This document shows, piece by piece, positions 32,752-51,149 of a stretch of DNA of 64,000 bases (within the stretch, counting starts at the first letter, position 1; every line of letters starts with the position of its first letter). Source of the DNA: an uncultured Gammaproteobacteria bacterium (lineage in GTDB: Bacteria; Pseudomonadota; Gammaproteobacteria; CAWCPV01); the NCBI GenBank assembly GCA_963797555.1, contig CAWCPV010000003.1, forward strand, positions 480,001 through 544,000, in the 5' to 3' direction. The translations under genes and the position numbers were made by a program. A model generated the notes under the pieces. The model was not told where the DNA came from. It searched no databases and saw nothing but the letters and a program-made list of their open reading frames with translations.

Positions 32752-34799
32752 TCAGTTCAACCCCAACGCCTTAAACGCCGCCTGGCGCATATCGCCGAAG
32801 AACACCGGGTCGACCTGCTCCAGCACGTCCGCGTTGACTTCCAAAAACTGCCGCTTGTTCTCGATCGGGATGAGCGCCCGTTTGGCCCCGTTGTCCATGG
32901 CGACCTGGAGCGGTTCGGTGAGGGAGCGCACGGGCTTGATGTTGCCCTGGATGCTCATGTCACCCAGGACCAGGAGCGCCGGCTGCGGGGGCGACTTACG
33001 CAGCGCGGAGTAGGCGGCAACGAAGAAGGCGACGCCGATCTCGGCCTCCACCTTGTTTCCGAGCAGGTCGATGACCTCGACGTGGAAGTCGGAGGTGTCG
33101 ACTTCCCGAGCGTACTCCGAACGCAGTCTTGTTCGCAGAGCAGGTAGCTGAAGGCCCTGGTCACGGACTCTTTCATCGCACCGCTAACGCCGCCCGCGAG
33201 CCTGAGCTTCCCGGTCCCGGACGACAAGGTGACCTCGACACGGTAGAGACCAACGGTGCCTTCTCCGCTCACGGATGCGGTATAGAGCGGTGCCGGGCGG
33301 CAGCGGGTCGGCGGAGATCAGGTCGCGACCACCCTGCTCAGGCACCCCGACGAACTTCTCCTCGCCGGTCTCGTTGACTTGGTAGCTGAACGAGGTCTGG
33401 TAGTACTCGAAGGAGCCCATCTTCTTGAGCTGCTCCTTCACCCGCCGGCGGCCTTCGATCGCGAACTGCAGGATCTCTTCGAGGTCGTCGCGCGAGACCT
33501 GGCCGTGCGGGATGGAGGATCTTCACCAGTCCCGGAGACGGTGCGGCGGACCGCCTTGCGATCGCGGGCGTTGAGGTGCGGCGCCGAGCGAAAAGTAGTG
33601 GTCGATGATCTCGGTGTAGTTGTGCTTGCGGAGGTCGCGCAGGGCCTCGGCGAGGTAGTCGACGACGAAGCCGTAGTGATCGGTGAAGTGCTCGTTGCGC
33701 ATCTTGGGCACTTCCCAGCCCGGCAGGTAGAAGTGCAGCCGGTCGATGAACGCCATGTCGTCGCGGATGACGTCGGGCAGTCGGCGCGAACAGGTGGCCG
33801 GTCTGCACCATCACGTCGACGGGCTGCTGGGTGTTGCCGAACATCGCGATGCTGGCGTAGCCGGCCATCGCCTCCTGGCCGCGCTGGAATTGGCCTGACT
33901 CGCAGTAGGTCTTCATCATGGTGATGACCTCCTTCGGCATCTTCTGGAGGTCGGCGACCTCGTCGAAGCCGATGGCATCCCAGATCTGGACCATGCCCTT
34001 GTAGCGGCCCTGCTGCTGCCCGAAGAGGTTGGCCACCGTCGTCGGGCCGGTGAGCAGCGCAGAGTAGGGGGAGAGCTCCTGCACCGCGTAGCTCTTGCCC
34101 GTTCCGCGAGGGCCCAGCTCGATGAGGTTGTAGTTGCGCTCGCAGAGCGGGATGAGCCGAGTGAGGAACAGCAGCTTGAGCCGCCGCTCCATCGACCGTT
34201 GGCTCGTAGCCCATGCTGCGCACCATGAAGTCGAGCCACTCGTCGGTGGTGAACTCGGCACGCAGCCGACGGTATTCGTCGAGATCGAAGGTCGCGAGCT
34301 GGATCGGGGTGAGCTTCTCGATCCAGAACGGGTACTTGCCCCTGGTCTCCTCGTCGTACTCGAAGCGCATGTCGATCTGCGCCCAGATGCCGCCGGTGAG
34401 AAGCCGGTCGAAGTCGCGCACGTAGTGGTCGGGGATGTGGACGTACTTGTGGCCGAAGTTCGTGACCTCCGCCCAGTACTGGGAGTCGACCAGGCGGACC
34501 TTCACCTTGTCGATGAAGGTGTGCCGGCCGTTCTCCTTGACCTTGCTCTGCGCCTTGGTACTCTCGTCCGGGCGGATGTAGTTGTCGGCCAGGGTGTCGT
34601 TGACCACCTGCAGCCCCATCTGGATCGCCATCTCGTCGGACGAGGCGCAGTACTTCCCGAGCAGGTACTCCAGCACGAACACCGGAACGTTCGCGCCGAC
34701 CTTGACCTTCCGCACCAGGTCCTTGCGGACGACCTTGCCGGCGAAGACGCGGTTGACCTTGTCGTCAAGGGAGTCGCGAGACGGGGCGGTTTCGGTCAT
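32752..34799 (-). CDS. brxL: BREX Lon-like protease BrxL (multiple frameshifts)
   Basis: GKVVRKDL, NVPVFVLEYLLGKYC, ELGPRGTGKS, AFIDRLHFYLPGWEVPK, C-terminal Lon-like domain; spread over about 6 ORFs. Confidence 0.88.
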
Positions 34800-34801
34800 T
34801 G

Positions 34802-34838
34802 TTGGTTGGTCGTCAGTCGTTGGTCGTCAGTCGTCAGT
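34802..34838. repeat. Heptamer array, downstream arm of four-helix-bundle cassette
   Basis: Plus strand TTGGTCGTCAGTCGTTGGTCGTCAGTCGTCAG, i.e. CTGACGA-type units on the transcribed strand. Confidence 0.85.
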
Positions 34839-35187
34839 GTCGGGATGACCGCAAGGCGTTGAGCATTCGACCCACGCCCGCGCAATCATCCATGATCAGA
34901 GCTAACGAGTCGTTCGGCAAAAAGCCCAACCGATGTGCCAGCTCCGCGTGGGTTTCCAATTCCATCAACGACCCGTACGCGATTGCACAGAAGCGCGTCA
35001 ACTCGGCATCTGTGCCTCGACCCCGTCCCTCGGCAATGCTCGACGGGACCGAGACTGCCGCACGGCGCATCTGGACGGTCAACCCGAACCGCTCATCCGG
35101 CGGGAAACTCTTCGTCGCTTCGTAGACATGTTCCGCAAGCAGCATCGCCTGCTCCCAGACCCGCAAGTCTCTATAGCCTTTGCTCAT
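34834..35187 (-). CDS. Four helix bundle protein (23S rRNA IVS/S23, Avd-like fold)
   Basis: YRDLRVWEQAM, FPPDERFGLTVQMRRAAVSVPSSIAEG, IAYGSLMELET. Confidence 0.92.
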   Translation of the reverse strand: MSKGYRDLRVWEQAMLLAEHVYEATKSFPPDERFGLTVQMRRAAVSVPSSIAEGRGRGTDAELTRFCAIAYGSLMELETHAELAHRLGFLPNDSLALIMDDCAGVGRMLNALRSSRH

Positions 35188-35189
35188 TG

Positions 35190-35368
35190 GCGGTCATCGG
35201 TCATCGGTCGTTGCCAAGGAATCGTCCGGCTGCCGCAGTCCTCCCGCTGACGACCGAAGACCGACGACCGGCGACTCTCCCTCCCTGACGACTGAAGACT
35301 GACGACCGACGACGCCCTGCGCCCTGCAGTCCTCCCGCTGACGACGGAAGACTGACCACCGACGATTC
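35190..35368. repeat. Degenerate heptamer arrays, upstream arm of four-helix-bundle cassette
   Basis: Mostly TCGTC(A/G)G-type units on the transcribed strand; GCAGTCCTCCCGCTGACGAC occurs twice. Confidence 0.85.
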
Positions 35369-35372
35369 TCGC

Positions 35373-37911
35373 TCATATCCCCAGCTTCACCGGCAGCTCA
35401 TCGGACTCGGCCAGCACCCCGTCCGTGCGAGCGTCGAGTACGACGACCCGGAGCGACTGGCAGGCGTCGTTGGTCAGCATCATGCCGACGCTCGCCTCGG
35501 CCCCCAGCGCCAGGGTGAGCGTGCCCTTCGAGCGGTCGAACTGTCCGCCGACCGCCATGCCCGCTCGACCGACCTCCTCCGCACCGGACATCAGCAGGAC
35601 CCGCAGCACGAGCGGCTCGGTGGCGAGCAGGTCACCCGCCGCGCCCAGCTTGAGGCCGAAGGTGCGGTTGGTCACCTTCGGCGGACAGCCCTCGATCCGG
35701 ACGTGCACGCCGGGCACTTCGGCCGGCTTGCCCGCCGCCATGCGCAGGCTGATGACCGGGACCGCCAGCTCCTGCAGGCTGAATCCGCCGTGATGGAAGC
35801 TCAGCCCCCCGCCCGCCTTGAATACCCCGAGCCCGGTCGGGAAGACGAAATCCAGATCCGTGTGGTAGCCGAGATCCGCCCCGGTCACCCGCACCGTGCC
35901 GGCCGGCGTGCTGCCCCCGTACCCGATCCAGCAGCGCCGGTGCAGGTCCAGGGTATCTCCGCCGGGGTTGTCGGTCTTCATGTCGTCGTCCTTGCGGATG
36001 GAGAACTGGTGACCGTGGTCGGCGGCGATGACGAAGTTCTCGATGCCCGCGGCGGCGAGCTTCTTCACCGCCCGCGCGAGGTTCCCGATGATGGCGTCCA
36101 TCACCTGCCGCGCCAGCAAGTCCCCGTCCATCTCCCCGACGAAGTCGATCTCCTGGGAACGGACCACGACCAACGATGCCTTGCCAATGTCCTTGGCAAC
36201 CTTGGACGGCGAGTTGCCGAGCAGCTTTCCCAGCGTCATCTCCACCACGTCCGGCACCTTGGCCTTGAGGAACTTGGTCCGTTCGTTCAGGCCCGGCATG
36301 TCCGTGCCCTCGATGCGCGCCGCGAGCCTTCCCTTGGCCTCCACCACGTCGAAGCTGGCCGAGGCCCCAGGCAGCAGCCCCGCCATGCCGACCGGCGTGA
36401 TGGACGGCAGCGCTGCGACCGCCGCCCGTACTGTGAGATCCTTCGCCCCTTCGATCTGGCGCGCCAGCTCCACGCCCATCTCGAAGCGCATGGCATCGAC
36501 GAAGAAATAGGCGACGCGGCCGCCCTTGGTCAGGACCACGTCGGAGTAGACGCGTGTCTGGTGCAGTGCCCGCGGCACGGTCCAGTGGGATTGTGGCAGC
36601 GCCTTGGCGAACCCGTCCGCCATCGCCCGCAGCAGGTGCTCGTGCTCGTGCCGGACCACCCCGAGCGCCTTCTCCGCCTCCGGCTCGTCGTCCATCTTGG
36701 CGACCCAGGTTTCCAGCCGCCGCTGCAAGGTGTCCGCCCTATGCCAGCCATCCTCGCCCGTATAGGCGGCGAACCACTTGGCCGGATCGCTCCCCATCTT
36801 GGTCAGCGCCGGGCGGATGCGCGCCAGCTCGCGCCCGAGCTCCGCCATCAGCCGGCAAGCCTCCCATTGGGCCTGACGCCGCACGTCGCGGTCCACCCAG
36901 AAGCTGTGACCGCGCTCGGTGATGACGTCCAACGCCGCGTCGTACTGCTTGTCGGCGACGAGCGCGCCCGCATGGCCGAGCAGCCGCTCCTCCTCGAACC
37001 GAAAGGTATCCACCGCACCCAGATGGACTGCATCCACATCTGCACTCGCGAGCCCGAGGTCCTGCTCCACCTTGTCGGCCAGCGCTACATAGGCATCTGG
37101 ATGGCGCCGTCGAAGGCCCTCCGCCACGTCGCGAATGCGCGCGGTCTGCTCCTTTCCGGGCACGCCGGGAACCATGCCGACGGACTTCGGGGGCTCGCAG
37201 GACAGATCGGCCCGGAACTCGTTGACCAACACGTAGCGCGAGGTCTTGTCGCGCGCCTCGGTCACTCCCGTGGCGTCCTGCAGCTCCAGACCCAGGCGGG
37301 CCCCGATCAGCTTGAGAAGCTCAGGGACAGCTTCCTTCTCGACCAAGGATGCGTCCTTCCCGTCGGAGGCGAACCACTCGGTAAGCAGCGCTTCGCCCTG
37401 GGCACCGCCGAACAGGCTGTGCAGCACCGACGCCACCTGGCCCCCTTCGCCCTGCGCCAAGAAGGCGACGATGTCGTCATAGGTCACCGACGCCGGCCGC
37501 AGCATGTCGTCGATCTGCCCGTCGGTGAAACGCTTGCGCAGCACATTCAGCGCCAGGCGCTTGAGCTGCGGCTCGTAGCAGGTGCCCGCCCTTTTCCAGC
37601 TCCATCAGCACCGAGCCCGCGCGGTCCCGTGCAACGCCCGGAAGATAGAGGATCAAGAGGTTCGGGCTTGTCCGCGGCCACGATGGGCTCGACCGCCGCA
37701 CGCAGGCCGAAGAAGGTTCCGTCGATAACGGGCCAGAAAGGCGGCTCGGTCTCCGATCGCTCACCCGTGGCAACACGCCGCCCTCTTGCGCTTCCAGCTC
37801 CCGGTCGAAGAACGGCTCGAACTCGCTCCGAGGGTCGTAAAAGACGACGACCGAGTGCTTCGCGAGAAGCTCGTCGAGGTGCTCGCAAAGGTAGTCGTGG
37901 AAGGGGTTCAC
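35373..37911 (-). CDS. pglZ: BREX PglZ phosphatase-domain protein (frameshifts in first about 350 bp)
   Basis: VVFYDP, FFVDAMRFEMG, LPSITPVGMA, AADHGH, FHHGGFSLQE. Confidence 0.9.
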
Positions 37912-37954
37912 GGGGTTCGATGCTCGCGATTCGGGACCAGGGTTCAGAAAGGAA

Positions 37955-38188
37955 TCACTCGCCCAAGGCGTCGAGAAAGCGCCGGATCAGCTCGGGGTGA
38001 TAGTGGATGCCCGTTTGGAGGGCGCGTTCGAGAAATGGCCTAACCTCGGAGATCACTCCCTCCCGTTTCGCCTTGCCCAATAGACCAAGCGCCCCGGTTA
38101 CTCTCAGCCCCACCGCGAGCGCCATGCGCCGCCCCTTCCACTCGTCGATGCAGACTTGCCCAATACCCTCGTCGATCCGGTTATCCAT
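37955..38188 (-). pseudogene. Internally deleted DUF3368 PIN-like toxin
   Basis: Only C-terminal CIDEWKGRRMA..GLRVTGALGLL part remains; compare full paralog at 44324. Confidence 0.75.
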
Positions 38189-38444
38189 GCCGAGCGAAAT
38201 CGATCTCTAGCTCCGCATCATCCGGCCGCAGATTGCTCATCGGAAACCCGATACGAGGCAGCGAGTAAAGAAAATCCACACGGCCCTTGCCACATAACTT
38301 GGCCGCTTGTCCGGAAGAGAGCTTACCCTGTTCGTAGAGCTGCGCCGCCAACAACAGACGAGCCTCATCGGCAAACTCCGCCGGGGACAAACCGAGGTTG
38401 ACGAGCACGTCATCGTCATAGTCGATGATTACTTGATGGGTCAT
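38181..38444 (-). CDS. UPF0175 family antitoxin
   Basis: LLAAQLYEQGKLSSGQAAKLCG..RVDFL. Confidence 0.88.
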   Translation of the reverse strand: MTHQVIIDYDDDVLVNLGLSPAEFADEARLLLAAQLYEQGKLSSGQAAKLCGKGRVDFLYSLPRIGFPMSNLRPDDAELEIDFARHG

Positions 38445-38445
38445 G

Positions 38446-38560
38446 TCAGGGTCCGGGGTTCAGGGGTCAGGGTTCGGTCGTGGGTCGTGGGTCCGTCAGT
38501 CGTCGGTCGTCGGTCGTCGGTCGTCGGTCGTCGGTCGTCGGTCGTCGGTCGTCGGTCGTC
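38446..38560. repeat. Compound heptamer array: GGGTTC(A/G)-type units then 8 perfect GTCGTCG units
   Basis: Read directly; perfect run at 38499-38560. Confidence 0.95.
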
Positions 38561-38641
38561 CGATAATAGCGCGTGCCGCGGCCTGCGCCGGTCCTGGTGA
38601 CCGAGCCGTCGGCGAGCAGGGCGCCGATGGCAGCGTGCCGG

Positions 38642-38917
38642 TCACTCACCGTCCCGTTCCTGGCCGCGCTCCAGCAAATCCAGGTCGGCTAGAATCTCGT
38701 CCGCGGTCTGCTGGAACGGCGTGACGCCGTATCTGCCAAGGGCATCGATGAACTCCGCGCGCGAGACCCCGGCGATCTCGGCGGCACGGCCCTGGCTGAT
38801 GCGCTCCAGCTCGTACCACTTCACGGCCGCGGCCATGCGCATCTCGCGAACGAACTCCTCGGGATCCTTGCGGACACTGGCCAGAACGCTGGGATCGATA
38901 TCGAAGGCTAGGTTCAT
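38642..38917 (-). CDS. UPF0175 family antitoxin (orphan)
   Basis: MAAAVKWYELERISQGRAAEIAGVSRAEFIDAL. Confidence 0.88.
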   Translation of the reverse strand: MNLAFDIDPSVLASVRKDPEEFVREMRMAAAVKWYELERISQGRAAEIAGVSRAEFIDALGRYGVTPFQQTADEILADLDLLERGQERDGE

Positions 38918-38997
38918 CGGGGGTTCCTCGGGTTCGGGGTTCAGTCGTCAGTCGTCAGTCGTCAGATGATAGCGAGTGCCGCGGTCTGGGTTCGGGG

Positions 38998-40335
38998 TCA
39001 GGGTTCGGCCTTCAGGAGTTCGGAGCTTGGGACGACCTCTGCTGAACCCTGACCCCTGGTGGACCCTGAACCTTGTACCCTTCTCCTCCCCGAACCCCGC
39101 ACCCTGGTCCCTGCCGGTGCGGGCGCCTCCAGGAGACTTTTCAGTGCATCCTTGACCGCGGCGGAGGTACGTTCGGCGATGAGTCGATCGATCTCATGTT
39201 GGGGGACCTTGCGGGGCGTCCACTTGCCGGGCTTCGCATTGAGCCCCGCGTCGTCGGTCTTCGGTCTTCGGTCGTCAGCAGAAGACGCCGACGACTGAGG
39301 ACTGACAACTGACGACTCCCCTGTCGACTGACGACTGAAGACTGACGCCTGACGACCGTCTTCCGGCTGACGCCTGACGACCGACGACTGATGACCCTTC
39401 TCCTCCCAGAATACGTCTTCCAGCCCATGCGCGATGGCGAGACTTCGATCCTTCGCGCACTTGGGCACGACCCGCTCGGGCCACAGGTGCATGGCGAGGT
39501 GCGCCCAGTCGTAGTCGCCGGCCACCAGCTTGTCCCAGCAGTCCTTGCACTCCCTCTGCCAGGCGCGGTGACGGGGCACCAGGCGCCACAGCGGCGAGAA
39601 GTTGATGATGACGCCGTCGTTGAGGTCCGGATTCCAGAGCGGAGCGACCCGGGCGACCTCCTCGCGGAAGGCACGCAGCTCCTCGACGAAGGTCTCCTGC
39701 TCCGCGATCTCCTTGCGCTGGCTCGCTGTCGGGTTGCCGCCGCCGTCCTGCACCAGGCCGCGTCAGCTTGCGCTCTTCGTGCTGGAGCTTGGGCGTCACG
39801 AAGTCGTTGAGGACCTGGTAGAAAGTGTCCTTGGTGAAGCGGTGGCAGTAGAGCCAGACCGAATAGCTTGCGCGACGGCGTGGTGAGCTGCCAGTAGATC
39901 GGCGCCTTGCGGCGGCTCTTGGAATAGCGCCGGATGTGCTCGGCGAAGAAGCTGCCGGCGAGCCAGCCCTGCAAGTCGTGGCCACGGGGGTCGAGGATCT
40001 CGGCGGCCTCCTGCCAGCGGGCGTCGGCGTCCTCGGCGAAGACGCATCGGAAGACCTGGCGTGCCCGGCCGGTGAGGTCGCGCCCATGGCCCGGGTCGTG
40101 CGACCAGGATGCCGTCCGCGGGGAAGTCGATGGGATAGCCGGGAGGCGGCCCCTCCAGCGGCAGCCCGTCGTCGCCCGTCAGCATGCCCGGCGAGCAGAC
40201 TGGCAGCGGATCGAAAGGCTCGGGCTCCACGGGCGCCGCCCGCTCGCCGGTGGCCAGCCGCAGGTCGAAGCGCCCCAATGCGACACCGACGAGCCAGTCC
40301 ATCAGCTCAGCGACGAGACCGGCGGGGTCGCTCAT
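38998..40335 (-). CDS. pglX: PglX C-terminal segment (frameshifted), separately initiated
   Basis: VGVALGRFDLR, YSKSRRKAPIYWQL, PDLNDGVIINFSPL, GDYDWAHLAM. Confidence 0.75.
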
Positions 40336-40568
40336 GCCACCTCGACCACCAGCCGGTGCCGGATGGCCGGCGCGGGCCGACCCAGCTTCTGCAGGCTCTC
40401 AAGGTGCAGGTCCAGCGCCTCGCAAGCGTGCGCGAAGGCCTCCGGAAGGGTGTCGCCGCTCGTGATGATCTCGGGGATATCCGGGAAGGTCACGCTGTAG
40501 GCCGGCTCCTGGGCCTCATAATCGACGGTGAAGACATAATCGCGATAGACATGGCGAGTGGTCATCAT
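40332..40568 (-). CDS. hicB: HicB-family antitoxin
   Basis: YSVTFPDIPEIITSGDTLPEA..HACEAL. Confidence 0.88.
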   Translation of the reverse strand: MMTTRHVYRDYVFTVDYEAQEPAYSVTFPDIPEIITSGDTLPEAFAHACEALDLHLESLQKLGRPAPAIRHRLVVEVA

Positions 40569-40801
40569 GGCTGCAGAAGCTCCAGAAGCTTACGAATGTC
40601 CGCGGGGTGGCAGTGAGCACGGCCGCCGTGGGGCCGCACCAGGGTCAGCAGCCGCCCGTCGGCGCGATGGTAGGTGCGGTGGCTGCCTCGGGCATTGAAG
40701 AGGACGAAGCCCTCGTAGCGCAGCAGCGCCTCGACCTCGGAGAACCGCACGGACCCGGGCGAGCGGCGCATGCGCTCGATGAGCTTCTCGCGTCGTGTCA
40801 A
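40565..40801 (-). CDS. hicA: HicA-family toxin
   Basis: VRFSEVEALL..EGF....RGSHRTY...PH. Confidence 0.85.
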   Translation of the reverse strand: MTRREKLIERMRRSPGSVRFSEVEALLRYEGFVLFNARGSHRTYHRADGRLLTLVRPHGGRAHCHPADIRKLLELLQP

Positions 40802-41856
40802 TCCAACTCCTCCCCGGCATCCTCATCGCCCCCGTCCCCAAGCTCCGCAGAGGCCAGCGCCGCGGCCCGGTCGGCCGTGGAGAAGCCGTAAAGATCGAAG
40901 CAGCGCTCGTCGATCTCCGCCTGAATGCGGGCGAGCTCGCCCTCGGTCTCCGCGACCCGGTCCGCCCAGGCCGCCCAACGCTCGCGAAGCCTCGCGCCCC
41001 CGACCTGCAAGAGGGCCGGCAGCACGAAGGCGTGGGAGGTCTGGGTGCGGGTGTCGAGGGAGCGCTTGAGGGACCAGGCGCGGCGGGAGAGGGTGGCGAG
41101 TGCGTTGGGTCGTCGTCAGCGTCGTCGGTCGTCGGTCGTCGGTCGTCAGCGGGGGGACGGGCGTGCTGCTGGATACCCCGACTTCGTAGGACTGCGCCAG
41201 CTCGACCGCCAACTGAAGCTCGACCAGCGCCCGGAAGGGCGGCTGTTGACCACCGCGAGCAGCGCGAGCAGGGTCTCCGGGTCGTCGCCCTCGACGAAGG
41301 CGGCCGGCCCCTTGTCCGCGAAGATGCAGCCCGCCGGCATCGCGCGGATGGAGAGGCCATTGGTCCGCCGCGGCCAGGTGAGGCCGGGGCGGAAGAAGCA
41401 GTCGACGTTCCGGGCGTTGCGAGTCCACTGTCCAGGATCGTCCAAAGAAGCTCGAAGTAAGTCTTCCTTCTGTCGGCTCCCAGTCAACCAGCCAGATACA
41501 CGTCGGCGTAGAAAGGGCTGAGAGCTCCGCCCTTGGCAAAAGGCACACCAACGTCCCTTCCCACGCAGGTAGCCCGGTCTCCCAGACCAAGGCGCAGAAA
41601 TCGAAAATCGTCCGCGCGTCGCCAGTCCCAGACTTCGCGTGTCGCTGTCCGCTGTCCTCAAAGTGGTGGCAAGTGTAGGAACAGTTCCTCGACTTCGATC
41701 GCTTACCCAGTACGCAAACGGTGAGCGCGGCACGGCGCGAAAGGACTCTGGATCGACATCGAACCGCTCCGAATGCGGTCGGGCGTTCTGATCGCCGTCG
41801 CGCAGCGCCGCCGCCTTGTCCTCGGCCTCGATGACGCGGAAGAAGGTCGCCTTCAT
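40798..41856 (-). CDS. pglX: PglX middle segment (target-recognition region; several frameshifts)
   Basis: VPRSPFAYW, FFRPGLTWPRRT, MPAGCIFADKGPAAF, EIDERCFDLYG; starts by ATGA overlap with the N-terminal part. Confidence 0.7.
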
Positions 41857-44115
41857 GCGCCTGTTCCTGAACCCTGCACCCCGAACCCTAACCGACCCTC
41901 CAAGCAATACGCCGCCGCCTCGACCATCGCATCGTCCATCACCCCGTAGCCGAGATCGGCGACGACGACCGGCGGGGCCTCCTTGAGGAGGATCTCCTCG
42001 CGCCAGCGTTGGAAGGAGGACAAGAAGAAGCCGGTCCGGGAGGTGATGGCGCCGAGGCGGCTCCGCGGGTGCAGCAGCCTGATGCCTCGTTCCACGAAGG
42101 CCGCGTACATGTCGTTCTTCGTGCGCGGCCAGGCGGATGACGCCCAGGAACGCACGCCTTCCGGGAATGCCCCGAATGGCGGATTCATGAGTACTACGTC
42201 GAAACGCAGAAGGCACAAGTCGATGAAGCCGAGCCCTCGCGCGGCGTCCTCGCTGAACAGGCGCCGCTGATAGGCTCGACCGTTCGAGGCGTGCTCGGCG
42301 TACGCACGAAGCGCGCGAAGGACTTCCTGCTCCGCCCTCCGCCAGCGCTCCTCGTCGAGTGTGCGAAAAAGCGTCCCATGCTCGCCGTGGATCTCCCGCA
42401 CGGCGTCGCGGATATCCTCCTCGATGCGCAGCAGGGAGCCCGCCTCGCCGGCAAGCTCCATACGCTCGAAGACGCGCGCGACGAGCTTTGCGAGGTCGGG
42501 ATCGAGGGCCGCGAGGAACTCTCGCCGCAGATCCGGCTCCCCGGGCATGGGCTCGGCCACGACGATATTGGTCTTCCGGATGGCGCGGCGCTTGCTGCGG
42601 CGCGATGCCGAAATCCTGATAGGCCCGCTGCGCCCGCATCCAGAGCGCCAAGGCGGCGATCTGCGCACAGCGGGCGTCGATGTCGATGCCGTGGAGGTTG
42701 TGCCTAAGGATGAGTCCCGGCAAGGCCAGGCGCAGGGCGTCGAGGTCCGGGTAGTCGTCGCGCAGGCGGCGCCCCGTCACCTCGGAGGCGGGCGAGTCCG
42801 AATCGGCCCAGGCCTCCTCGTAGATGACGAGCAGCAGGTCGAAGGCATAGAGCAGGAAGTGCCCCGATCCGCAGGCGGGGTCGAGGATCTTGAGGTCGCG
42901 GGGGTCTTTCTTCGGTCTTCGGTCGTCAGCGAATGCGTCGCCGGTCTTCAGTCGTCGGTCGTCAGCGGATGCGTCGTCTGTCTTCAGGCGTCTGTCATCA
43001 GCCGAGGAGTCTCCTGCTGACGACTGATGACTGACGACTGACGACACTTCCCCCGACGACTGACGACCGACGACTGACGACTGCTCCCCCGACGACTCTT
43101 CCCGCACCAGATAGTCCAGCTCACGGAGCCTGGTCTTGCCTTGCCGCATCTCGTACCAGATGCGTCCCAGCGTGTTGTCCGTGAGGAACTGGACCACATA
43201 GCGGGGGGTAAAGAACTGGTTCCGCACCGCAAGCTCGCGGGTGTTGCGCGGCGCCTGGCTTTCCGCGCGCATCTGCCGGCGCTCTTCGTCGCCGTTGAAG
43301 TACTGGTAGACCCAGCCGATGGTTTCGTCGAGCTGCCAGATGGTCGTCGGTCTTCGGTCATCGGTCGTCGGCCCCGGTCCTCCTGCCGACGACTGAAGAC
43401 TGACGACTGATGACAATCCCTCATCGTTCAGGATCCCCAACAGCTCCGCCAACGCCTGCCTCCGCGGCCACAGCAGGCTCGCCGGATCGCGCCGGTCGAA
43501 CAGCACCCGCACCTCGCGGCCGATTTCGTCGAACAGGCTCTCGATGTAGAGCCGGTAGCCGTGGTCCGGGAGTTGTACCAACCCCGGTGCCAGGCCGCAG
43601 AACTCCTTGAAGCCGGAGGATTGCTCGCCCCGGGAGATGCACTCCTGCACCAGCCCGCGAGCCTCGAGCATCTTCAGCGCCACGAACCGGTTCAGCGTGG
43701 TGAAGGCCGCCTCGCGCCGGAAGGCTGCAACTGCTTCGGAATAGTCATCAGTCGTCGGCCGTCTGTCGTCTTGGGGGAAGTCGTCAGTCGTCAGTCGTCG
43801 GTCGTCAGCGGTTCCATCGTCGGTTGTCGGTCGTCGCTCATCGGCGGGGGTGAGTTTGCTGACGACTGAAGGCCGATGACCGAAGACTGCCGACCGATGA
43901 CTGACGACCGACGACACCGCGTGCTCCACTGCGGCTACCAGCTTGCTCCGCACGACCCGCTGCGCCGCATCCAGATGGCTGCCAGGCTCGGCAGCGATGG
44001 TCCCGTCCAAGCGGATGTCGAAGACACCCTCCAATTGCTCCGCGAACTCCCGCTCCAGCAGCGCTCTGGCAGCCTGAGTAGCCTTTTGGATGCGGTTGCG
44101 GGTTTCTTTGTCCAT
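41853..44115 (-). CDS. pglX: PglX N6-adenine methyltransferase, N-terminal/catalytic part (frameshift near 42600)
   Basis: FTTLNRFVALK, IGWVYQYF, QFFTPRYVV, ILDPACGSGHF (motif I), MNPPF (motif IV). Confidence 0.9.
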
Positions 44116-44323
44116 TTGTCAGGGTGGGGTCGAGCGTGATAGTGCTCGGAATCACATGGGTTTGACTATTTGCACATAAGTACGCTCGCGGGCGAAAAAT
44201 TTACGGTCGCGATCATAAATTCGGCCTGCGCTTCTAGGCAGTGCCTCTGCCCTTGCGGCAGAGGTATAAGATGTCCGGCGCTGTCCTAGGCTCGCCTGAT
44301 AACACCTGAAACCCCGAACCCTG

Positions 44324-44812
44324 CTATTCACCGACCTCGCTCAACAGCCGCCGAACCAATTCGTCGGACGCGTACAAGCCAGTTGCAAGCAACCGTCTGA
44401 CGACCGGCTCCGCCCAATCAATCAATCCCCTTGCCTTCGCGCGCCCGACGATTCCCAGTGTGCCGATGACCGCCAAGCCCATGGCCATCGCACAGCGGCG
44501 ACCTTCGCGGTCGTCGATGACGACTCGCTCCGCGTGATGCGCAAGCGCATGGGCAATGACCTGGGTTTCGCCAGCACCCAAGTCCCAGCTAAGAATCTCT
44601 GGGGCTGCGCCCACGTCTTCGACGATGACAAAGGCCGGGGCGTGTGAGATCCCTTTGAGGATTGTGCGACCGTCGGGCTTGGCGCCCACCTCCTCCGCAA
44701 CGGACCTCGGAACGTCGACCCGTTCGGCCATTTTGCCCAGTAGCCCGAGGGTTGCCGCCTTGCCGAGCAAGATCAGCGGCGAGGCGTTAACGACCCAGCG
44801 CTTAGACTCCAT
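44324..44812 (-). CDS. DUF3368 PIN-like toxin
   Basis: WVVNASPLILL, DLGAGETQVI, VIDDREGRRCA, VIGTLGIV. Confidence 0.9.
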   Translation of the reverse strand: MESKRWVVNASPLILLGKAATLGLLGKMAERVDVPRSVAEEVGAKPDGRTILKGISHAPAFVIVEDVGAAPEILSWDLGAGETQVIAHALAHHAERVVIDDREGRRCAMAMGLAVIGTLGIVGRAKARGLIDWAEPVVRRLLATGLYASDELVRRLLSEVGE

Positions 44813-45056
44813 GGATCTCGTCCGCCAACTCGTCGGGTGCGACCTGGCAGGCCGGGACCTTGCGCCGGTAAAGCTCATCCAGGAACTCGGCTCTTGTCAG
44901 GTCAGCAAGCTCCGCCGCCTTTCCCTGAGACACGATCCCCTGCGCATACCATTGCACCGCCGCGGCGATTCGCATCTCGCGGGCAAATTCGGCGGGCGCC
45001 AGCCGGAGAGCACCGAATGCCGAGGCGTCGAAGTCGAAGCTGATCGTAGTGGTCAT
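44802..45056 (-). CDS. UPF0175 family antitoxin
   Basis: AAAVQWYAQGIVSQGKAAELADLTRAEFL; overlaps toxin start. Confidence 0.88.
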   Translation of the reverse strand: MTTTISFDFDASAFGALRLAPAEFAREMRIAAAVQWYAQGIVSQGKAAELADLTRAEFLDELYRRKVPACQVAPDELADEIHGV

Positions 45057-45141
45057 GAGTCACCTCAAGGTTCTGGGGGCTGGGTACAGGGTGCAGCAGG
45101 AGTCGGCGGAAGGCCAGCTCCTGAACCCCGAACCCTGCACC

Positions 45142-48100
45142 CTACTGCACCAACACCTTCTTGCCCGCGGCGATCAGCTCCAGGCACTGCTCCTTCAGCC
45201 CGCCGAGCGCCTGATCGAGCTGTTCCTCGTTCTCCACGCCGCCGGCGAAATAGCTCGACGCGGAGACTTTCACCACGCGGCTGCCGTCGATGACGCGCAT
45301 CAGTTCCTCGATGGCCTTGTCCCGGCGCACGGGACAGGCGTCGAGGTCGGCGCGGAGCTGCGGTATGGACGGGTTGGTTGCCTTGGCGACGGTGTAGGCG
45401 GCCAGCGGCTCGGCGATACGGTCGCGGTGCTCCTCGCCGACCTGCTGCCAGCCGGGCGTTCCGCGAAGCTGCTGGAGAGCGGTTTCGTATGCCTGGACAC
45501 GTGCATCCAATGCCTGGTCCAGCCGGGCCTGGTAGGCGTCCTCCAGCGCTTTGGTGTGCTGGTCGATGGCCGGAAGCTCGCGATAGAAGGACTCTCGGGC
45601 CATCAGGTCCGCGAGCTTGTCAGCGTGCTCCCGATCGTTGTCGCCGAGGTCCGGCTCGTGTTGCAGGAAGGGCCCGGTGCTGTCGAGTACCTTGCGCGCC
45701 CGGCCGAGGTCGTGAAGCGCGGTTTCCGTCAGGGCGTTGGCGAGCTCCGCGCCGCGTTTGATGGCTTCCTTGAGCTCCTGGTGGCAAGCAGTGAATGCCT
45801 TCAGCGCCTGGCAGTCCCGCTGGCGGCGAAAGCCGACGATGTTGCTCAATGCCGTCTCCAGGATCTCGGCCCCCGGTAGGGCATGCTTGTCGAGCTGGGC
45901 GGCAACAGCGCGCAGGGTCTCCTCGTGCGCCTCCGTGGTCTCGCGGATGGTCTGGGCGATGACATTTTCCTCGTACTCCTGGATTTCTTTGCCGAAGCAG
46001 GTCTTGTAGGCTTCGCCGGCCTCGACGTAGTCCGCGAACTCGCAGTCGGTCGCGCGCGGGCGGAACGAGGCCTGGCGGAACAGGTTGTTGTTGGTGAAGG
46101 TGGTGCGCGCCTCCAGGGAGAGGGCGGACTCGATGACCTGGCCCTTGCTGGTCGCCTCGATCTTGCCGGCGCGCAGCAGCGCGATGACGAGCAGGCGAAC
46201 AACGTCGAAGTCCCAGCCGAAGGGTTCCTTGGCGAATTCGTCGGTCAGATAGCGGCCGCTGGCGACCTCGCCATAGCTGGTGCGGTTCTGATGCGTGCGA
46301 GCACCTCGGCGAGCGACGCCGCTCTCGACGTTGAAGACGGGTTTGCCGCCCTGGTCGCGCACCAGGCCGAGATCGGTGTAGACGGGTGTCAGTCCGCGCA
46401 GGTTCTCGGTGGTCAGAAGAGAATCGAGGTCGTGCTTGTTGACGCGGGCGGCGGCCTCCTCGAAGCGGTCGAAGACCTCTGGCAGGGCCTGAGACAGGAC
46501 CTTCGAGGCAGTCCTCGATACCTCGCTCGCCCCTTCCTCCGGGCTGCGGTCGTTGCCCCGGAAGAAGATGGTGCCGTTCAGCAGGGACTGCTTGATCAGG
46601 CGCCGCAGCTCGTCCTGGTGGCGGCGTTGCCTGAGCTTCTCCTCCGCGACCAGGGCGGTCTCGTCCTTGGTCTGGGCGCCGCGTTCCTTGCGGGACAGGA
46701 TCTCCCTGGAGCGAAAGATCTCGACGGTTTCACGGTCGATCGCATCGCCGAGGGCGGCAACCCAGAAGACGGCCTTGGTCTCCGTCTGGCTGCGCCTGCG
46801 GAGATCCTCGACTTGTTCGTCGTACTCGCTCCCCGCCTCGGCGAGGGTCAGGTGGAAGGGAATGTCCCCGTCGACCGTCAACCGCCCCCCGAGGTAAAGA
46901 CCCGCCTTGAAGAGCTTGACGTCGAGCAGACTGTGGGACGGTTGCGGCTGCCACAGGGCGGTGACGATCTCGGCGTGCAAGCGGCTGGTATCGCCTGGCT
47001 TGGGGGACAGACTGGAGCGCTGGCGTTCCCAGTCGTCTTCCGCGGGGGTGGGAATACGGTAGCCGTCGTCTCCGCGGCGGACCATGAGACCCTTCTCCAA
47101 GGCGTCCAGGGCCTGGCGGACCTCGGCAAGGCGCGAATCGGCATCGACGGCTGGGTGGAGCGCGGCGGCGATGTTCTCGGGCGTGCGGTGAATGCTGCGG
47201 ACGTATTGCAGCAGGCAGATCGCCTTGGCGACGGGCTGGGCGAGCGGGTGGGCGATCTTGGTACCGATGTCGGCGATCTTGCCGCGGATCTCGCTGCCGA
47301 TGTTCCCGGAGACGAGGTCGTAGATCTGATCGACCCGTGCGAGCTTCCCGACGGGCTCGTCGGCCAAGTCCACATCGGGATGGATGAGCAACTGCTGGGC
47401 GAGCTTGATGATGGTGCGGTTCGCGCCGCCGACGTGCCTGCTCGCACCGGCCTGGGTACGCAGGCCGGAGACGATCTGGATGATGAGGTCGATCTGGTAA
47501 GGGAGCAGCGGGTAGAGGTCGATGAAAGACTCGGTCGACAGCTCCGGAAGCTTGATGTCCGCCGTGATGCGGGTGTTGTCGGTCAGCCGCCCGCGGTGCT
47601 GGGTGAACAGCTCGCGGAGCAGCTTCTCCGCCGCAGCGTTCTTGGAGAGCACGCGCTTGCTGGTGACCTCGGAGATGTCCGACGGCTCCAGGTGCACCTG
47701 AAGCGGGAAACGGTCCATCAGACGCGCAAGCTCGACGCGGCGGTCGTCGAGGCCGCCGACCAGCTCCGTGAGCTTCTCCTGGGAGGTGACGACCACCCAC
47801 ATCTTGCCACGGCCGAGGCGCCCGAGGTTCTGCACGACGGCCTGGAGGTCGAGCATCTTCTGCACGTCGCGGGCGACGAACTGGCCGACCTCGTCCACCA
47901 CGAACAGCAGTGTCTTGCCGGGTCGGCGGCGCGACATGAGATTCAGTCCCCGTGCGGCGAGATCGCCGGGGGTGATGTCCGCGCGCTTCATGGCCGACTC
48001 GCGCCAACTGTCCACCGTCGCATAAGTGGCAGGGTCCAGCTCGTGCATCACGCGGCTCGCCTGCTGGACGGCGATGGCGATCTTGCCCTTCTCGAAGTCC

Positions 48101-48675
48101 CAGTCCTTGTCGAAGATCTGCCGATACTTGGCCTTGAAGGCGTCGAGGCGACCTTCCTCCTCCAGCGTGATCTCCAGCTCGGAAAGGTCCAGATCCCGCG
48201 CGTACCCCAGGCTCTGAAGGAAGAGCCGGTACATGATCTCGGTGATGCTCTGATTGCCGGTGCGGATGCCGCGGTCGGTGGAGACGTCGAAGATGACGGC
48301 CTCGGTGGGGATCTGCTCGGCGATGTTGCTCAGCAGGACCTGAATCTTCGGATCATGACAGCGCTGGGCGAGCAGCTCGCCGGCGCCCTGCCCCAGGATG
48401 TCCCGGTTGGCGAGGGCGAGCCCGAGGTACTTGGCGAAGCTGGACTTCCCGGAGCCGAAGAAGCCCGAAACCCAGACGGCGATGCCCTCGTTGGGTTTCC
48501 GCCAAGTGGTTTGGTAGTGGTCGAAGACTTCGCGGAAATGCGTGCGGATCGAGTCGGTGACGACATACTCGGCCAGCTCATCGCGGATGATCTGCTGGTC
48601 GGCTTGGTCGACCTTGATGACTTCCTCGATGCGCCGTTCGATGTCGCTGGCGAAAAGGTCTTTGATTGTGGGCAT
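45142..48675 (-). CDS. brxC: BREX P-loop ATPase BrxC
   Basis: IEEVIKVDQ, EYVVT, WVSGFFGSGKSSF, VDEVGQF, VTSQE, YPLLPYQ. Confidence 0.93.
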   Translation of the reverse strand: MPTIKDLFASDIERRIEEVIKVDQADQQIIRDELAEYVVTDSIRTHFREVFDHYQTTWRKPNEGIAVWVSGFFGSGKSSFAKYLGLALANRDILGQGAGELLAQRCHDPKIQVLLSNIAEQIPTEAVIFDVSTDRGIRTGNQSITEIMYRLFLQSLGYARDLDLSELEITLEEEGRLDAFKAKYRQIFDKDWDFEKGKIAIAVQQASRVMHELDPATYATVDSWRESAMKRADITPGDLAARGLNLMSRRRPGKTLLFVVDEVGQFVARDVQKMLDLQAVVQNLGRLGRGKMWVVVTSQEKLTELVGGLDDRRVELARLMDRFPLQVHLEPSDISEVTSKRVLSKNAAAEKLLRELFTQHRGRLTDNTRITADIKLPELSTESFIDLYPLLPYQIDLIIQIVSGLRTQAGASRHVGGANRTIIKLAQQLLIHPDVDLADEPVGKLARVDQIYDLVSGNIGSEIRGKIADIGTKIAHPLAQPVAKAICLLQYVRSIHRTPENIAAALHPAVDADSRLAEVRQALDALEKGLMVRRGDDGYRIPTPAEDDWERQRSSLSPKPGDTSRLHAEIVTALWQPQPSHSLLDVKLFKAGLYLGGRLTVDGDIPFHLTLAEAGSEYDEQVEDLRRRSQTETKAVFWVAALGDAIDRETVEIFRSREILSRKERGAQTKDETALVAEEKLRQRRHQDELRRLIKQSLLNGTIFFRGNDRSPEEGASEVSRTASKVLSQALPEVFDRFEEAAARVNKHDLDSLLTTENLRGLTPVYTDLGLVRDQGGKPVFNVESGVARRGARTHQNRTSYGEVASGRYLTDEFAKEPFGWDFDVVRLLVIALLRAGKIEATSKGQVIESALSLEARTTFTNNNLFRQASFRPRATDCEFADYVEAGEAYKTCFGKEIQEYEENVIAQTIRETTEAHEETLRAVAAQLDKHALPGAEILETALSNIVGFRRQRDCQALKAFTACHQELKEAIKRGAELANALTETALHDLGRARKVLDSTGPFLQHEPDLGDNDREHADKLADLMARESFYRELPAIDQHTKALEDAYQARLDQALDARVQAYETALQQLRGTPGWQQVGEEHRDRIAEPLAAYTVAKATNPSIPQLRADLDACPVRRDKAIEELMRVIDGSRVVKVSASSYFAGGVENEEQLDQALGGLKEQCLELIAAGKKVLVQ

Positions 48676-48681
48676 CGGTCG

Positions 48682-48930
48682 TCAGTCGTTGGTCGTCGGC
48701 GAGGGGTAACTGGTTCTTGTGTCGTTCGGCGGTAACGAAGAGCGCAGGGCATTGAGCATTCGGGCCACTTCTGCGCAGTCGTTCATGATCGACGAAAGGG
48801 ACAGCGCCGCATCTGGCCCGTCAGACCAAAACGCTCGTCCTGCGGGAAACCTTTCGTCGCTTCGTAGACATGTTCCGCAAGTGTCATCGCTTGGTGCCAA
48901 ACACGCAAGTCTCCGAAACCTGCGCTTATT
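48682..48930 (-). pseudogene. Internally deleted four helix bundle paralog, flanked by heptamer arrays
   Basis: GDLRVWHQAMTLAEHVYEATKGFPQDERFGLTGQMRR joined to IMNDCAEVARMLNALRSS; strong DNA similarity to 34834-35187. Confidence 0.85.
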
Positions 48931-48992
48931 TCTGTTCAGTCTTCGGTCTCCGGCATATTCTCCCGCGGCGACTGACGACTGACGACATCCTC

Positions 48993-49572
48993 TCAAAAAA
49001 TCCTCGGCCGGTAGTTGTGCTCGGCGTCCAGAACGCCCATGAAGCGCAGGCCGGCGGCACCATCGAGATCACCCGGGTAGAACAGGACGGCGGGGACGTG
49101 CACCTTGCCCTTGAGCTGCTCCAGCAACGCGGAGGTGCGGTACATGGGGAAGAGCGCACCCGCGCGCACGATGAATACCACGTCGCGCTGCGGGTCGGCG
49201 TCCTCCGGGATGCGGCGCGCGACCAGCTCGTCCAGGGGTTGGTACTCGCTCAGGATCTGGAAGACGGTCTCGACCGTCGCTTCGAGGCCCACGGATCTTC
49301 TCCGCGTCGACCAGCGCCTCGGGCCCCATGCCTTCCGCCTCCAGAGCCTCGCTGAGGCATTCGGCGAGGGAGATAGTCGTCACCCGTTTGCCCGTCTGCT
49401 CCAGCCGCGTGCGCAGGAGCGCGACTTCCTGGCGGACCGAAAATTCCTCTTCCGGCGGGTAGCGGAAGATGGCGTAGGGCATGTCGTGGTAGGCGCTGAT
49501 CTGCTGCCTGGGGTCCGGCCGCTTCAGCGCCGGTTCGAGCTGCTGAGTGAGGCGTTCCCTCCAATCGGACAT
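48993..49572 (-). CDS. brxB: BrxB (DUF1788), frameshift near 49295
   Basis: IFRYPPEEEF, GALFPMYRTSALL, VLFYPG, HNYRPRIF. Confidence 0.85.
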
Positions 49573-50351
49573 CAGTGCAGGTCTCTGGCGTAATCGGCCG
49601 CCGAGGTCGCGGGCAGCTCGAGCTGGGCGAGACTCCCGGCGACCTCGTAGTGCAGCTTGCGGAACTGGTGCAGGCGCAGGATCTCCCGCTCAACGTCCGC
49701 CGAATCCATCAGGTACATGCGCCAGTTTTCGTCGTCGATGACGCGCCGGGCGTTGGCGTCCCGTTCCATCATGGCGTGGAGCAGATACAGGAAGCTCTCC
49801 TCCGGCAAGTGATAGGAGGCGAACTCCCTCGACTGGATGCCCTTCAGGAGCCCGAAGTCCACGGCGATCCGCAACAGGCCGGAGGCGACGCGCTTCAACG
49901 TGGCGTCGCTCCACTTGCCGGACCACTCGATGCCCTTTTTCTTGGAGAGCGAATGGAGGTAGGGGAAGAGGTCCTCCGCGCGCAGGCGGTAGGCGCCGGA
50001 AGTGAACTGGGGGTAGAGCCAGTTGACGAGGAAATCGCGGACCAGGAACTCGTCGCGGGTCATGTGGTAGAGGAGCAGCGGCTTCCAGACCTCGCGGTCA
50101 CATCCCGACTGGCCGAGCTTCACGAGGGGACGATCGCGGCCCGCGGGGTCGAAGCGGCGGTTGAGCACCCACGCGACATCTCGCGCCCAGTGGGCGCTGG
50201 TCGCGCCAATCGTGTTGTCTTCGCGAACGCGCCTGAGATTCTCCGCCTTGGAGAGCGCATAGTCCCAATCCCGGAACACGGCGTACGTCTCCTCGATCAG
50301 GGAACCTTTGATGATGGTGAAGGAGGAGACGACGCTGGATCGGCCATCCAC
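49572..50351 (-). CDS. brxA: BrxA (DUF1819)
   Basis: WSDATLKRVASGLLRIAVDFGLL; position before brxB. Confidence 0.75.
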   Translation of the reverse strand: MDGRSSVVSSFTIIKGSLIEETYAVFRDWDYALSKAENLRRVREDNTIGATSAHWARDVAWVLNRRFDPAGRDRPLVKLGQSGCDREVWKPLLLYHMTRDEFLVRDFLVNWLYPQFTSGAYRLRAEDLFPYLHSLSKKKGIEWSGKWSDATLKRVASGLLRIAVDFGLLKGIQSREFASYHLPEESFLYLLHAMMERDANARRVIDDENWRMYLMDSADVEREILRLHQFRKLHYEVAGSLAQLELPATSAADYARDLH

Positions 50352-50353
50352 GC

Positions 50354-50941: not shown

Positions 50942-51110
50942 CGGATGCCAGAACGCAACCGATGACCGCAGAAATCATAGTACCAACCGGGACCTTCTGG
51001 CAGGTGGCTCGGACGGGACCGTTCGGCCCCCACCCATTGGGCGCAATTACACAGAAGTTACACGAACCAAAGGATACTTGCAGGTTATTTCCACAAGCCT
51101 TTGTTTATAT

Positions 51111-51149
51111 TGGTGGGCCTGGCAGGATTCGAACCTGCGACCAAGGGAT
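51111..51149 (-). other. 3' half of a tRNA (resembles tRNA-Ile2/Met CAT type); candidate att site or disrupted tRNA
   Basis: Reverse complement ATCCCTTGGTCGCAGGTTCGAATCCTGCCAGGCCCACCA: T-arm, acceptor 3' strand and CCA, with no 5' half. Confidence 0.75.

Follow-up and report, generated by a model that had tools for sequence, protein, structure and literature searches.

Inverted heptamer arrays and PF05635 genes as probable selfish hairpin cassettes in a type 1 BREX operon

In Coxiella burnetii, the intervening sequence (IVS) in helix 45 of the 23S ribosomal RNA (rRNA) has a 28-bp terminal stem and variable tandem GACAGAT heptamers ahead of its S23p open reading frame (ORF). RNase III cuts this stem in vitro, and the authors, who also cite Leptospira, call the IVS selfish and its mobility mechanism unknown (PMC4990558). 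Here we analyse a 64,000-nucleotide stretch (G000:C3:480001-544000, hereafter the window) from the draft genome G000 of an uncultured gammaproteobacterium (5.35 Mb, 20 contigs, 84.6% complete), in which a type 1 bacteriophage exclusion (BREX) operon contains inverted arrays of the heptamer TCGTCRG and its reverse complement CYGACGA, one pair of which encloses an intact gene of the PF05635 (23S_rRNA_IVP) family, IVP1. The two settings share a PF05635-family ORF in the loop of a terminal-inverted-repeat stem, a 28-bp length equal to four times seven, tandem heptamers and a sporadic distribution. Unlike the 23S IVS, the copies described here lie in a BREX operon, both in its spacers and in coding sequence, and in a DNA methylase gene; judging by sequence, they also differ in having long phased heptamer arrays on both sides, dispersed gene-less derivatives and in-gene copies that would be translated.

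Other repeats resemble parts of this arrangement. Rickettsia palindromic elements (RPEs) are reportedly small palindromes that lie in frame in genes and are tolerated as extra peptide; they are said to lack phased heptamers and an associated gene and to be confined to one genus, whereas the hairpin described here crosses phyla and has a loaded form. REPIN/RAYT systems combine many gene-less hairpins with a single-copy gene flanked by the same repeat, RAYT being an HUH transposase. Families of four tandem heptanucleotides occur within and between genes of Geobacter metallireducens as putative regulatory elements (PMC2700814), and TAACTGA repeats are horizontally spread and patchy in Beggiatoaceae, cyanobacteria and Bacteroidetes, with 'no mechanism evident' (PMC4679880). 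The present repeats are likewise runs of about four 7-base units, inter- and intragenic, in tens to hundreds of copies; written as CGACTGA, the unit shares 5/7 bases with TAACTGA, and both have stops on one strand only. The accessible portions of those two papers deal with direct repeats or regulator sites and draw no link to PF05635, hairpin cassettes or orthologous presence and absence. 23S_rRNA_IVP genes have also been described in CRISPR-cas operons, for example between cmr3 and cmr2, and read as having a candidate cas-associated function (PMC3936711). There as here, the gene is wedged into a defence operon; the available text of that paper mentions no flanking repeats, and in our case comparison with relatives shows that the gene was inserted. 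PF05635 shares its fold family with Avd, an accessory protein found in diversity-generating retroelements (DGRs) (PMC10053308). We found no publication that joins PF05635 genes to inverted heptamer arrays outside rRNA, and none that contains the TCGTCAG dimer, in a search that did not cover subscription journals or supplements.

The TCGTCRG dimer (at most one mismatch) has 58 matches in the window, all within 34810-48985 and none at 1-34800 or 49000-64000, compared with 0.16 expected by shuffling and a maximum of 2 in 100 shuffles. Genome-wide, the BREX locus holds 58/71 dimer matches, 16/29 TCGTCRG arrays and 7 of the 12 strict period-7 arrays of any unit; one more of these 12 is 2.5 kb from the third PF05635 gene of this genome, described below. 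A run finder assembled 23 runs into six inverted pairs and three solo arrays. The initial annotation, made from the letters of the window, had reported about ten such sites with none in the housekeeping region, and this count, at nine, held. TCGTCRG lies 5' and CYGACGA 3' in 6/6 pairs, so the polarity it described is real. Its reference to the transcribed strand adds nothing, because an inverted repeat reads identically on both strands; the meaningful statement is that the TCGTCRG-first type of palindrome is used and the mirror type is not. Neither a genome-wide spread nor random polarity, the pattern that had been named as evidence against an association, was what we found. The expectation that the arms can pair was borne out by predicted RNA folds: the outer arms close the minimum-free-energy structure around the PF05635 ORF at 34795-35372 (z = -5.2), a second region at 48670-48995 also folds (z = -2.3), and four gene-less hairpins described below reach z values of -3.3 to -9.2.

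The loaded cassette, detected as the inverted pair 34810-34837/35247-35365, is set between the stop of pglZ and the start of brxL. IVP1 (34834-35187, minus strand) is an intact gene of 117 aa that covers profile positions 1-106 of 106 (Pfam E = 5.6e-35; 120.2 bits against a cut-off of 33.8) and matches PDB 2GSC, an entry with five chains, at E = 5.8e-23; a weak match to bAvd (E = 3.7e-4) falls under the cut-off. From these matches, its fold family is the four-helix bundle. The 3' arm consists of four CYGACGA units on the minus strand (34806-34838), the first of which contains the IVP1 TGA stop, and the brxL ATG follows 10 nt past the arm. On the other side, three successive 5' arm blocks (35247-35365, TCGTCRG on the minus strand) begin 7 nt after the pglZ stop, and a short ATGACCG array (35191-35211), placed immediately before the start of IVP1, serves as local partner to the 5' arm closest to it. 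One sequencing-run contig of 580 nt spans 34644-35207. The conserved PF05635 motif is quoted as R..xS...N..E(G) (PMC3936711). In IVP1 this region reads ...RRAAVSVPSSIAEG, with Ser at the Asn position of the R..xS...N..E(G) / NIAEG motif, and five IVP1 relatives, including the gene of locus L131, have Asn there; the Ser-for-Asn difference may be genuine or may stem from an error in the assembly.

A second four-helix-bundle gene had been placed between two BREX genes at 48676-48990, the brxB-brxC junction. This description fits the intact gene between pglZ and brxL but not this site, where only a remnant is left. The scarred cassette (minus strand; inverted pair 48679-48699/48972-48985) retains a 5' arm at 48966-48988 and a 3' arm at 48677-48701 that directly adjoins the brxC ATG. 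An internal deletion at about 48740-48930 has spared a C-terminal piece of the PF05635 gene, and the remnant at 48801-48911 scores 38.5 bits over profile positions 2-38 only.

Comparison with 80 related BREX loci on metagenome contigs defined the empty state of these sites. Both brxB and brxC were present in 29 loci, 27 of which have a gap of 12-37 nt; the other two, L131 and L132, carry a 187-nt gene-less TCGTCRG hairpin. This one site is thus scarred in the window, a gene-less hairpin in L131/L132 and a short gap in 27 loci. At the pglZ-brxL junction, 31 of the 34 loci with both genes have at most 25 nt. The exceptions are L131/L132, with a 553-nt cassette whose PF05635 gene is 82% identical to IVP1 and whose arms are also TCGTCRG, and L192, with an unrelated gap of 1235 nt. 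The brxC-pglX junction measures at most 26 nt in 35 of 56 loci, and the exceptions are PF05635 cassettes, present in four loci with other heptamer units, and longer inserts. In aligned junctions, filled sites contain the entire element between a stop and a start codon, which in the empty sites are separated by a few bases. PF05635 genes were found in 7/80 related loci, at three different positions, the one in L166 being inside pglX. Period-7 arrays are absent from 66/80 loci, and those that are loaded, L131/L132, L136/L137 and L139, are the nearest relatives of the window. This pattern of sequences supports the view that the elements are cleanly bounded insertions, found loaded, scarred or empty. 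Through the clean junctions in 27/29 and 31/34 loci, it lends the same degree of support to the mobile unit, existing in loaded and empty versions, that had been proposed. Because both the pglZ-brxL cassette and the brxB-brxC element are common to the window and its nearest relative L131/L132, the load predates this genome's copy. The word 'colonising' therefore holds for the insertions themselves and not for the present genome, in which the load is largely shared with L131/L132 and the repeat has not spread beyond the locus.

That the repeats were made or misplaced by the assembler is extremely improbable. The assembly is a draft, and frame changes occur even in mfd. However, independent metagenome contigs carry matching elements at the corresponding junctions (L131/L132, L133, L136/L137, L139 and L143), and PglX protein records from other sources keep translated remnants.

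These remnants correspond to a feature absent from the initial annotation, four gene-less hairpins in frame within pglX. Three lie in its N-terminal half: site A (43745-43844/43873-43914; z = -6.6), site B (43344-43371/43386-43413; z = -3.3) and site C, which consists of two nested TCGTCRG hairpins (42909-42965/43017-43080; z = -9.2). The fourth is in the C-terminal part (39251-39278/39288-39394; z = -3.65). The pglX frame is open through all four (43745-43914, 43344-43413, 42909-43080 and 39251-39394), giving peptides of SSVVSRQ-like and DDRRPTT-like sequence, after which homologous PglX continues without a change of frame. P0003 and P0004, full-length PglX relatives from other sources, retain shortened, translated remnants at these positions, and P0033 lacks any. 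Arrays occur in the pglX N-terminal half in 10/71 aligned loci; with the insert-free L134 as reference, they fall at three sites, near residues 70, 182 and 270-299, L171 being the sole exception, and L166 adds a fourth pglX site. The site near residue 182 is occupied by TCGTCRG in the window and L133, a GGAGTTC-type unit in L136/L137 and a GGGTTCA-type unit in L141. Every array insert in the pglX alignment keeps the host frame.

The same holds for whole cassettes. Two of the 28 examined PF05635 cassettes are in genes, one in pglX of L166 and one in an 887-aa DNA methylase ORF of the window's own genome (C3:139704-140021). In both, one non-PF05635 frame (frame +2 in each case) is stop-free across the cassette, compared with 0/26 of the others; the 26 cassettes outside genes have 1-14 stops in each non-PF05635 frame. 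In-gene copies that are open and in frame argue against removal from the mRNA, as selection could not see an excised RNA. These reading frames thus argue that the in-gene elements are translated as extra loops and not cut out. A related test for stop avoidance in in-gene arms (T in 0/7 in-frame versus 16/35 out-of-frame positions; Fisher p = 0.03) was discarded: openness was part of how the ORFs had been chosen, which makes the argument circular. The whole-cassette frame test is its valid form. Outside the window, at G000:C16:103214-103400, opposed heptamer runs (CAGTGGC-like, then GATCACC-like) lie in frame in a methyltransferase judged Eco57I/PglX-like from its sequence, just after 'LG.WW', at a position that resembles pglX site C.

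Heptamer arrays in pglX could instead form a phase-variation device, in which gain or loss of 7-base units switches the BREX methyltransferase on and off. The in-frame arrays at four or five places in the gene, a unit length that is not a multiple of 3, and a nearly perfect 10-unit run (38493-38562, a solo array whose in-frame translation closes the pglX tail) are as this would require, and phase-variable genes with heptanucleotide repeats, such as neuO, are said to exist. Yet most units are imperfect, the inverted pairs are not needed by slippage switches, the same elements are found between genes and in many non-defence contexts, and none of the mapped pglX frame changes (near 42600, 41700-41200 and 39983-39722) is at a TCGTCRG array. 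We therefore rate such a switch as very unlikely.

A host-selected RNA module deserves more weight. The hairpins would then act as an RNase III site, mRNA stabiliser or cistron uncoupler, with the PF05635 ring binding single-stranded heptamers. In length, the arms (about 28 bp) correspond to the stem of the Coxiella IVS, a substrate of RNase III in vitro (PMC4990558), and PF05635 genes are reported inside cas operons too (PMC3936711). The elements sit exactly between stop and start, with a right arm that adjoins the ATG and replaces the usual spacer, and the predicted folds are significantly stable. By contrast, the positions are not conserved: 73/80 related loci have no PF05635 gene and 66/80 no array. 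In-gene copies are under selection for translation, and the transition mismatches in the window arms, read on the mRNA strand, number 10 G.U against 22 A.C, the opposite of what selection for an mRNA hairpin predicts, in ungapped arm-only counts that form a small sample and use one 3' arm twice. With these numbers, pairing is no better preserved in the transcript than on the opposite strand. On balance we consider the RNA module unlikely, and the 'self-processing' unit and 'mRNA counterpart of an IVS' of the initial annotation are not supported by the same mismatches or by the stop-free in-gene frames. A duplex-energy test of 'extended arms' and strand, applied to 160-nt flanks, was void: random segments score alike (-94 +/- 21 kcal/mol in related loci and -108 +/- 16 in the own genome), which renders the flank energies and a count of 16 sense versus 12 antisense uninformative. 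GGAG(G/A)AC-like motifs resembling a ribosome-binding site recur at several TCGTCRG hairpin apices (35240-35335, 43040-43055 and 43380-43395 in the window; 19700-19725 in L131) and were not seen in TCGTCRG loops of other phyla.

PF05635 genes and inverted heptamer arrays co-occur beyond the two BREX cassettes, as had been anticipated. All three PF05635 genes over the cut-off in the window's own genome have inverted heptamer arms; the third (C3:139704-140021, locus L211), which lies outside the window, has arms of the CAGTGGC type, and a gene-less CAGTGGC-type hairpin is found 2.5 kb away at C3:142459-142527. Within C3:139600-142530 (5310-8530 of L211), this third gene is nested in frame +2 in the 887-aa N6_N4 DNA methylase ORF, which is open throughout and contains more in-frame CAGTGGC-type hairpins, with UvrD-like helicase and ParE-like genes nearby. 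For an independent test we used five other genomes, chosen for their TCGTCRG arrays. Among 21 strong PF05635 matches, complementary period-7 arrays were present on both sides of 11, on one side of 4 and on neither side of 6, three of which are cut by contig ends; weak Avd-like matches in G061 and G063 had arrays at 0/9. Array density was about 25x higher within 350 nt of a PF05635 gene (29 arrays over no more than 21 kb of near flank versus 3 over 56.8 kb of far flank).

Each PF05635 gene tends to have its own heptamer unit. The closest protein pairs share related units (L147/L201, L219/L213, L208/L166 and window/L131). In a tree of 29 PF05635 proteins, 11/26 inner branches are unresolved and several are long, so that it excludes tight co-clustering of TCGTCRG-armed genes and not a loose relation. 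Gene and arms thus appear to travel together over short distances, with an arm sequence that does not track the protein.

The TCGTCRG hairpin itself is, by its sequence, a cross-phylum dispersed repeat. The exact triple unit occurs in at least 120 stretches (one genome per species) from Terriglobia, Chloroflexia, a deltaproteobacterial metagenome-assembled genome (MAG), Bacteroidota, cyanobacteria and others; some of the Streptomyces matches may be plain coding repeats. Among the matches listed, arrays usually have exactly four units, and adjacent opposite pairs have the window polarity 21 times and the mirror polarity 4 times. Individual examples have the ends YAG(TCGTCRG)4 ... (CYGACGA)4CTR and lie between a stop and a start codon. 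The five genomes hold 1273, 435, 121, 66 and 66 TCGTCRG matches, compared with 0-3 for a reversed control. The genome with 1273 matches, G061, has one PF05635 gene with exactly TCGTCRG arms (L215), an arrangement similar to that of REPIN/RAYT systems; G064 has a gene with one TCGTCRG arm (L218) and G063 a truncated gene (L230). None of 60 class-level relatives of the window's genome contains the triple unit, and this genome looks like the recipient of a loaded island, not the place of activity. In L021 and L041, from the deltaproteobacterial MAG, a GGTCGAA/TTCGACC hairpin family is nested in the loops of TCGTCAG hairpins; such nesting suggests that hairpin apices are themselves insertion targets.

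We consider it rather probable that these sequences belong to a selfish family of IVS-type hairpin cassettes, loaded in the BREX island by insertion at the DNA level, decaying to gene-less hairpins and surviving in frame within genes. Several observations weigh against this interpretation. L131 and L132 are near duplicates and do not count as independent. Occupancy of the pglX sites is concentrated in the nearest relatives of the window, and what look like independent insertions may in some cases go back to a single old event whose arms have since turned over. The TCGTCRG-armed PF05635 genes (window/L131, L215 and L218) do not cluster in the protein tree, and close PF05635 paralogues in G065 have unrelated units. 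In G062, with 435 matches, neither of the 2 PF05635 matches has TCGTCRG arms, and G065 has no TCGTCRG-armed gene among the 10 of 12 matches examined. A PF05635 gene was detected within about 4 kb of only 2 of the at least 120 TCGTCRG loci, in a tblastn search with IVP1 as a single, insensitive query that makes this a lower bound. Given the G062 result and these 2 loci, hairpins may spread without the gene. A small four-helix bundle, arms that do not follow the protein tree and a genome without a cognate gene also set the present family apart from REPIN/RAYT. In addition, there is no transposase, integrase or reverse transcriptase (RT) in or beside any cassette, no target duplication at the two junctions that were aligned to empty relatives and, to our knowledge, no catalytic activity of PF05635. 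The RT result comes from locus ORFs scanned with Pfam, with no exhaustive search of the window for RT remnants. The setting of IVP1 also differs from a DGR, as the gene is linked to neither an RT nor a template or variable repeat. The proposal of a unit other than an insertion sequence (IS) agrees with the lack of transposase and of target duplication, and the ISL3/DDE fragments at 51209-58084 are unrelated in sequence context.

Some of these points would equally be produced by resident, self-homogenising arrays, which arise in place through slippage and template switching and exchange PF05635 or toxin-antitoxin genes by recombination at their 28-30-bp arms. One in-frame pglX site holds three heptamer families across loci, close PF05635 paralogues have unrelated arms, no target duplication or linked enzyme is present, and cargo varies within one arm family, with a UPF0175 gene between direct copies and toxin-antitoxin pairs between GGGTTCR arms. 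However, a single 21-mer family with the same 4-unit arms, YAG...CTR ends and polarity recurs in Acidobacteriota, Chloroflexota, a deltaproteobacterial MAG, Bacteroidota and cyanobacteria, in hundreds of copies in some genomes. In-place origin fails to explain this recurrence of an identical 21-mer family, and most homologous junctions are clean, at 5-37 nt without any array trace. We regard an origin in place as rather unlikely.

In the favoured account of inserted selfish cassettes, the full unit would be a PF05635 gene between inverted phased-heptamer arrays, typically with 4 units (~28-30 bp) per arm. Integrating as DNA, it would enter the spacer of a few bases that separates a stop codon from the following start, or in-frame positions of genes that tolerate it. 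On decay, the gene would be deleted and the gene-less hairpin left behind, so that hairpins can far outnumber loaded units; within genes, only copies with an open frame would survive, to be translated as extra loops. The BREX island would have been loaded before reaching its present state, and the family, confined to the island here, is most likely inactive. Insertion would be an active, element-specific process, and our best guess is that an activity supplied in trans targets junctions or the apices of hairpins, assisted by the PF05635 protein as an accessory that binds nucleic acids. By analogy with the rRNA IVS, the stems of about 28 bp may be RNase III substrates in intercistronic transcripts. 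A further possibility, which we hold only tentatively, is that PF05635 genes and heptamer hairpins form a new, RAYT/REPIN-like class of mobile element whose mobilising activity has no known transposase fold. The four-helix-bundle ring would then act on folded single strands, or recruit a host polymerase or RT as Avd does, with hairpin apices and stop-start junctions as targets.

A second heptamer family, GGGTTCR/YGAACCC, also went unmentioned in the initial annotation. The BREX locus has 11 of its 18 genome-wide dimer matches, and its arrays bracket toxin-antitoxin genes there. Inverted GGGTTCR ... YGAACCC arrays lie at the end of the pglX body (38983-39104), a gene-less hairpin directly follows the brxC stop (45085-45143), and a further GGGTTCR arm is at about 44295-44322. 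Another array (41866-41893) extends the N-terminal half of pglX by 12 codons immediately ahead of its stop, where the next ORF begins in an ATGA overlap; 645-aa PglX relatives (P0021) stop at the identical point without it. The toxin-antitoxin genes, identified by Pfam and on the minus strand, comprise a UPF0175 gene with a DUF3368 remnant (37955-38459), with YGAACCC-type heptamers before and after; a UPF0175 gene (38642-38947; E = 6.8e-26); a hicA-hicB pair inside the pglX span (40332-40822; HicA E = 3.2e-8, HicB-like E = 7e-10), with pglX pieces on either side; and a UPF0175 and DUF3368 pair between brxC and pglX (44324-45059). YGAACCC arrays precede the window UPF0175 genes and their 87-90% identical relatives in L136 and L139, among them the L139 gene that is 90% identical to the one at 37955-38459 and has the same array in front. 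Around the UPF0175 gene at 38642-38947, the last pglX codons (RGTRY.) and a CYGACGA array are duplicated as direct repeats (38560-39000), a layout that suggests entry of the gene through recombination inside the array. A metagenome contig from DNA run X1 joins 44115 straight to 45143, without the 1027-nt toxin-antitoxin insert, with 96 letters on its shorter side; this run matches a share of 0.05 of the sequence words, and at 85% likeness it represents mostly relatives (443/995 pieces less than 90% alike). The two remaining solo TCGTCRG arrays have 3 units (38945-38965) and, inside the C-terminal half of pglX, 4 units (41122-41149).

The operon that hosts these elements is on the minus strand and follows the type 1 BREX gene order, with Pfam matches for BrxA, BrxC, PglX (MmeI_Mtase), PglZ and BrxL. 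It consists of brxA (49572-50351), a brxB-position gene without Pfam match (about 48993-49572; position kept in 39/80 related loci), an intact brxC of 1177 aa (45142-48675), a fragmented pglX (38563-44115, from ORFs and tblastn of P0033 and P0004; tail 38563-38652), pglZ (35373-37911; E = 6.7e-16; frame change near 37540) and a brxL truncated and split over two frames (33338-34799). The brxL N-terminal domain (BrxL_N, E = 2.9e-43) is followed in the second frame by a portion of the ATPase domain (BrxL_ATPase, positions 43-184 of 313 in the profile). To the left, the locus is flanked by housekeeping genes (mfd, tRNAs and DAHP synthase), and to the right by transposase fragments. As mfd (TRCF; 29049-32550) is split over two overlapping frames with a change near 30790, the assembly probably contains indel errors, which weakens pseudogene calls in the BREX locus; frame changes in pglX, pglZ and brxL are not readable as decay because mfd is frameshifted in the same assembly. 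Only brxL, cut short at the island edge, represents a clear gene loss in the locus. The pglX gene also has a natural split at 41853 (ATGA stop-start overlap at 41853-41856). About half of the closest PglX relatives are N-terminal halves of 605-650 aa with the same end point (...AAYCLE; for example P0021), and the split seems to be a regular variant of this BREX clade. Directly upstream of brxA is a conserved-looking 195-aa ORF without Pfam match (50354-50941), beyond which a DDE transposase fragment and an ISL3 transposase (51209-58084) may mark the edge of the island.

For annotation, our analysis means that defence genes, pglX and DNA methylases among them, are broken up or extended by inserts of this kind and gain peptide loops encoded by the repeats. 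The inserts can also pass for accessory defence genes, which is what happened to PF05635 genes in cas loci. What had been a vague association becomes testable through gain events at stop-start junctions, gene-less hairpins mobilised in trans, RNase III sensitivity and binding of the protein to heptamers. If the tentative new-class mechanism were true, it would explain rRNA intervening sequences, the excess of bacterial 7-base repeats and the genes nested in defence methyltransferases. More broadly, rRNA IVSs with an ORF, the PF05635 family of 'unknown function' and the orphan heptamer repeats of Geobacter, Beggiatoa and cyanobacteria may be one object in several states of decay.

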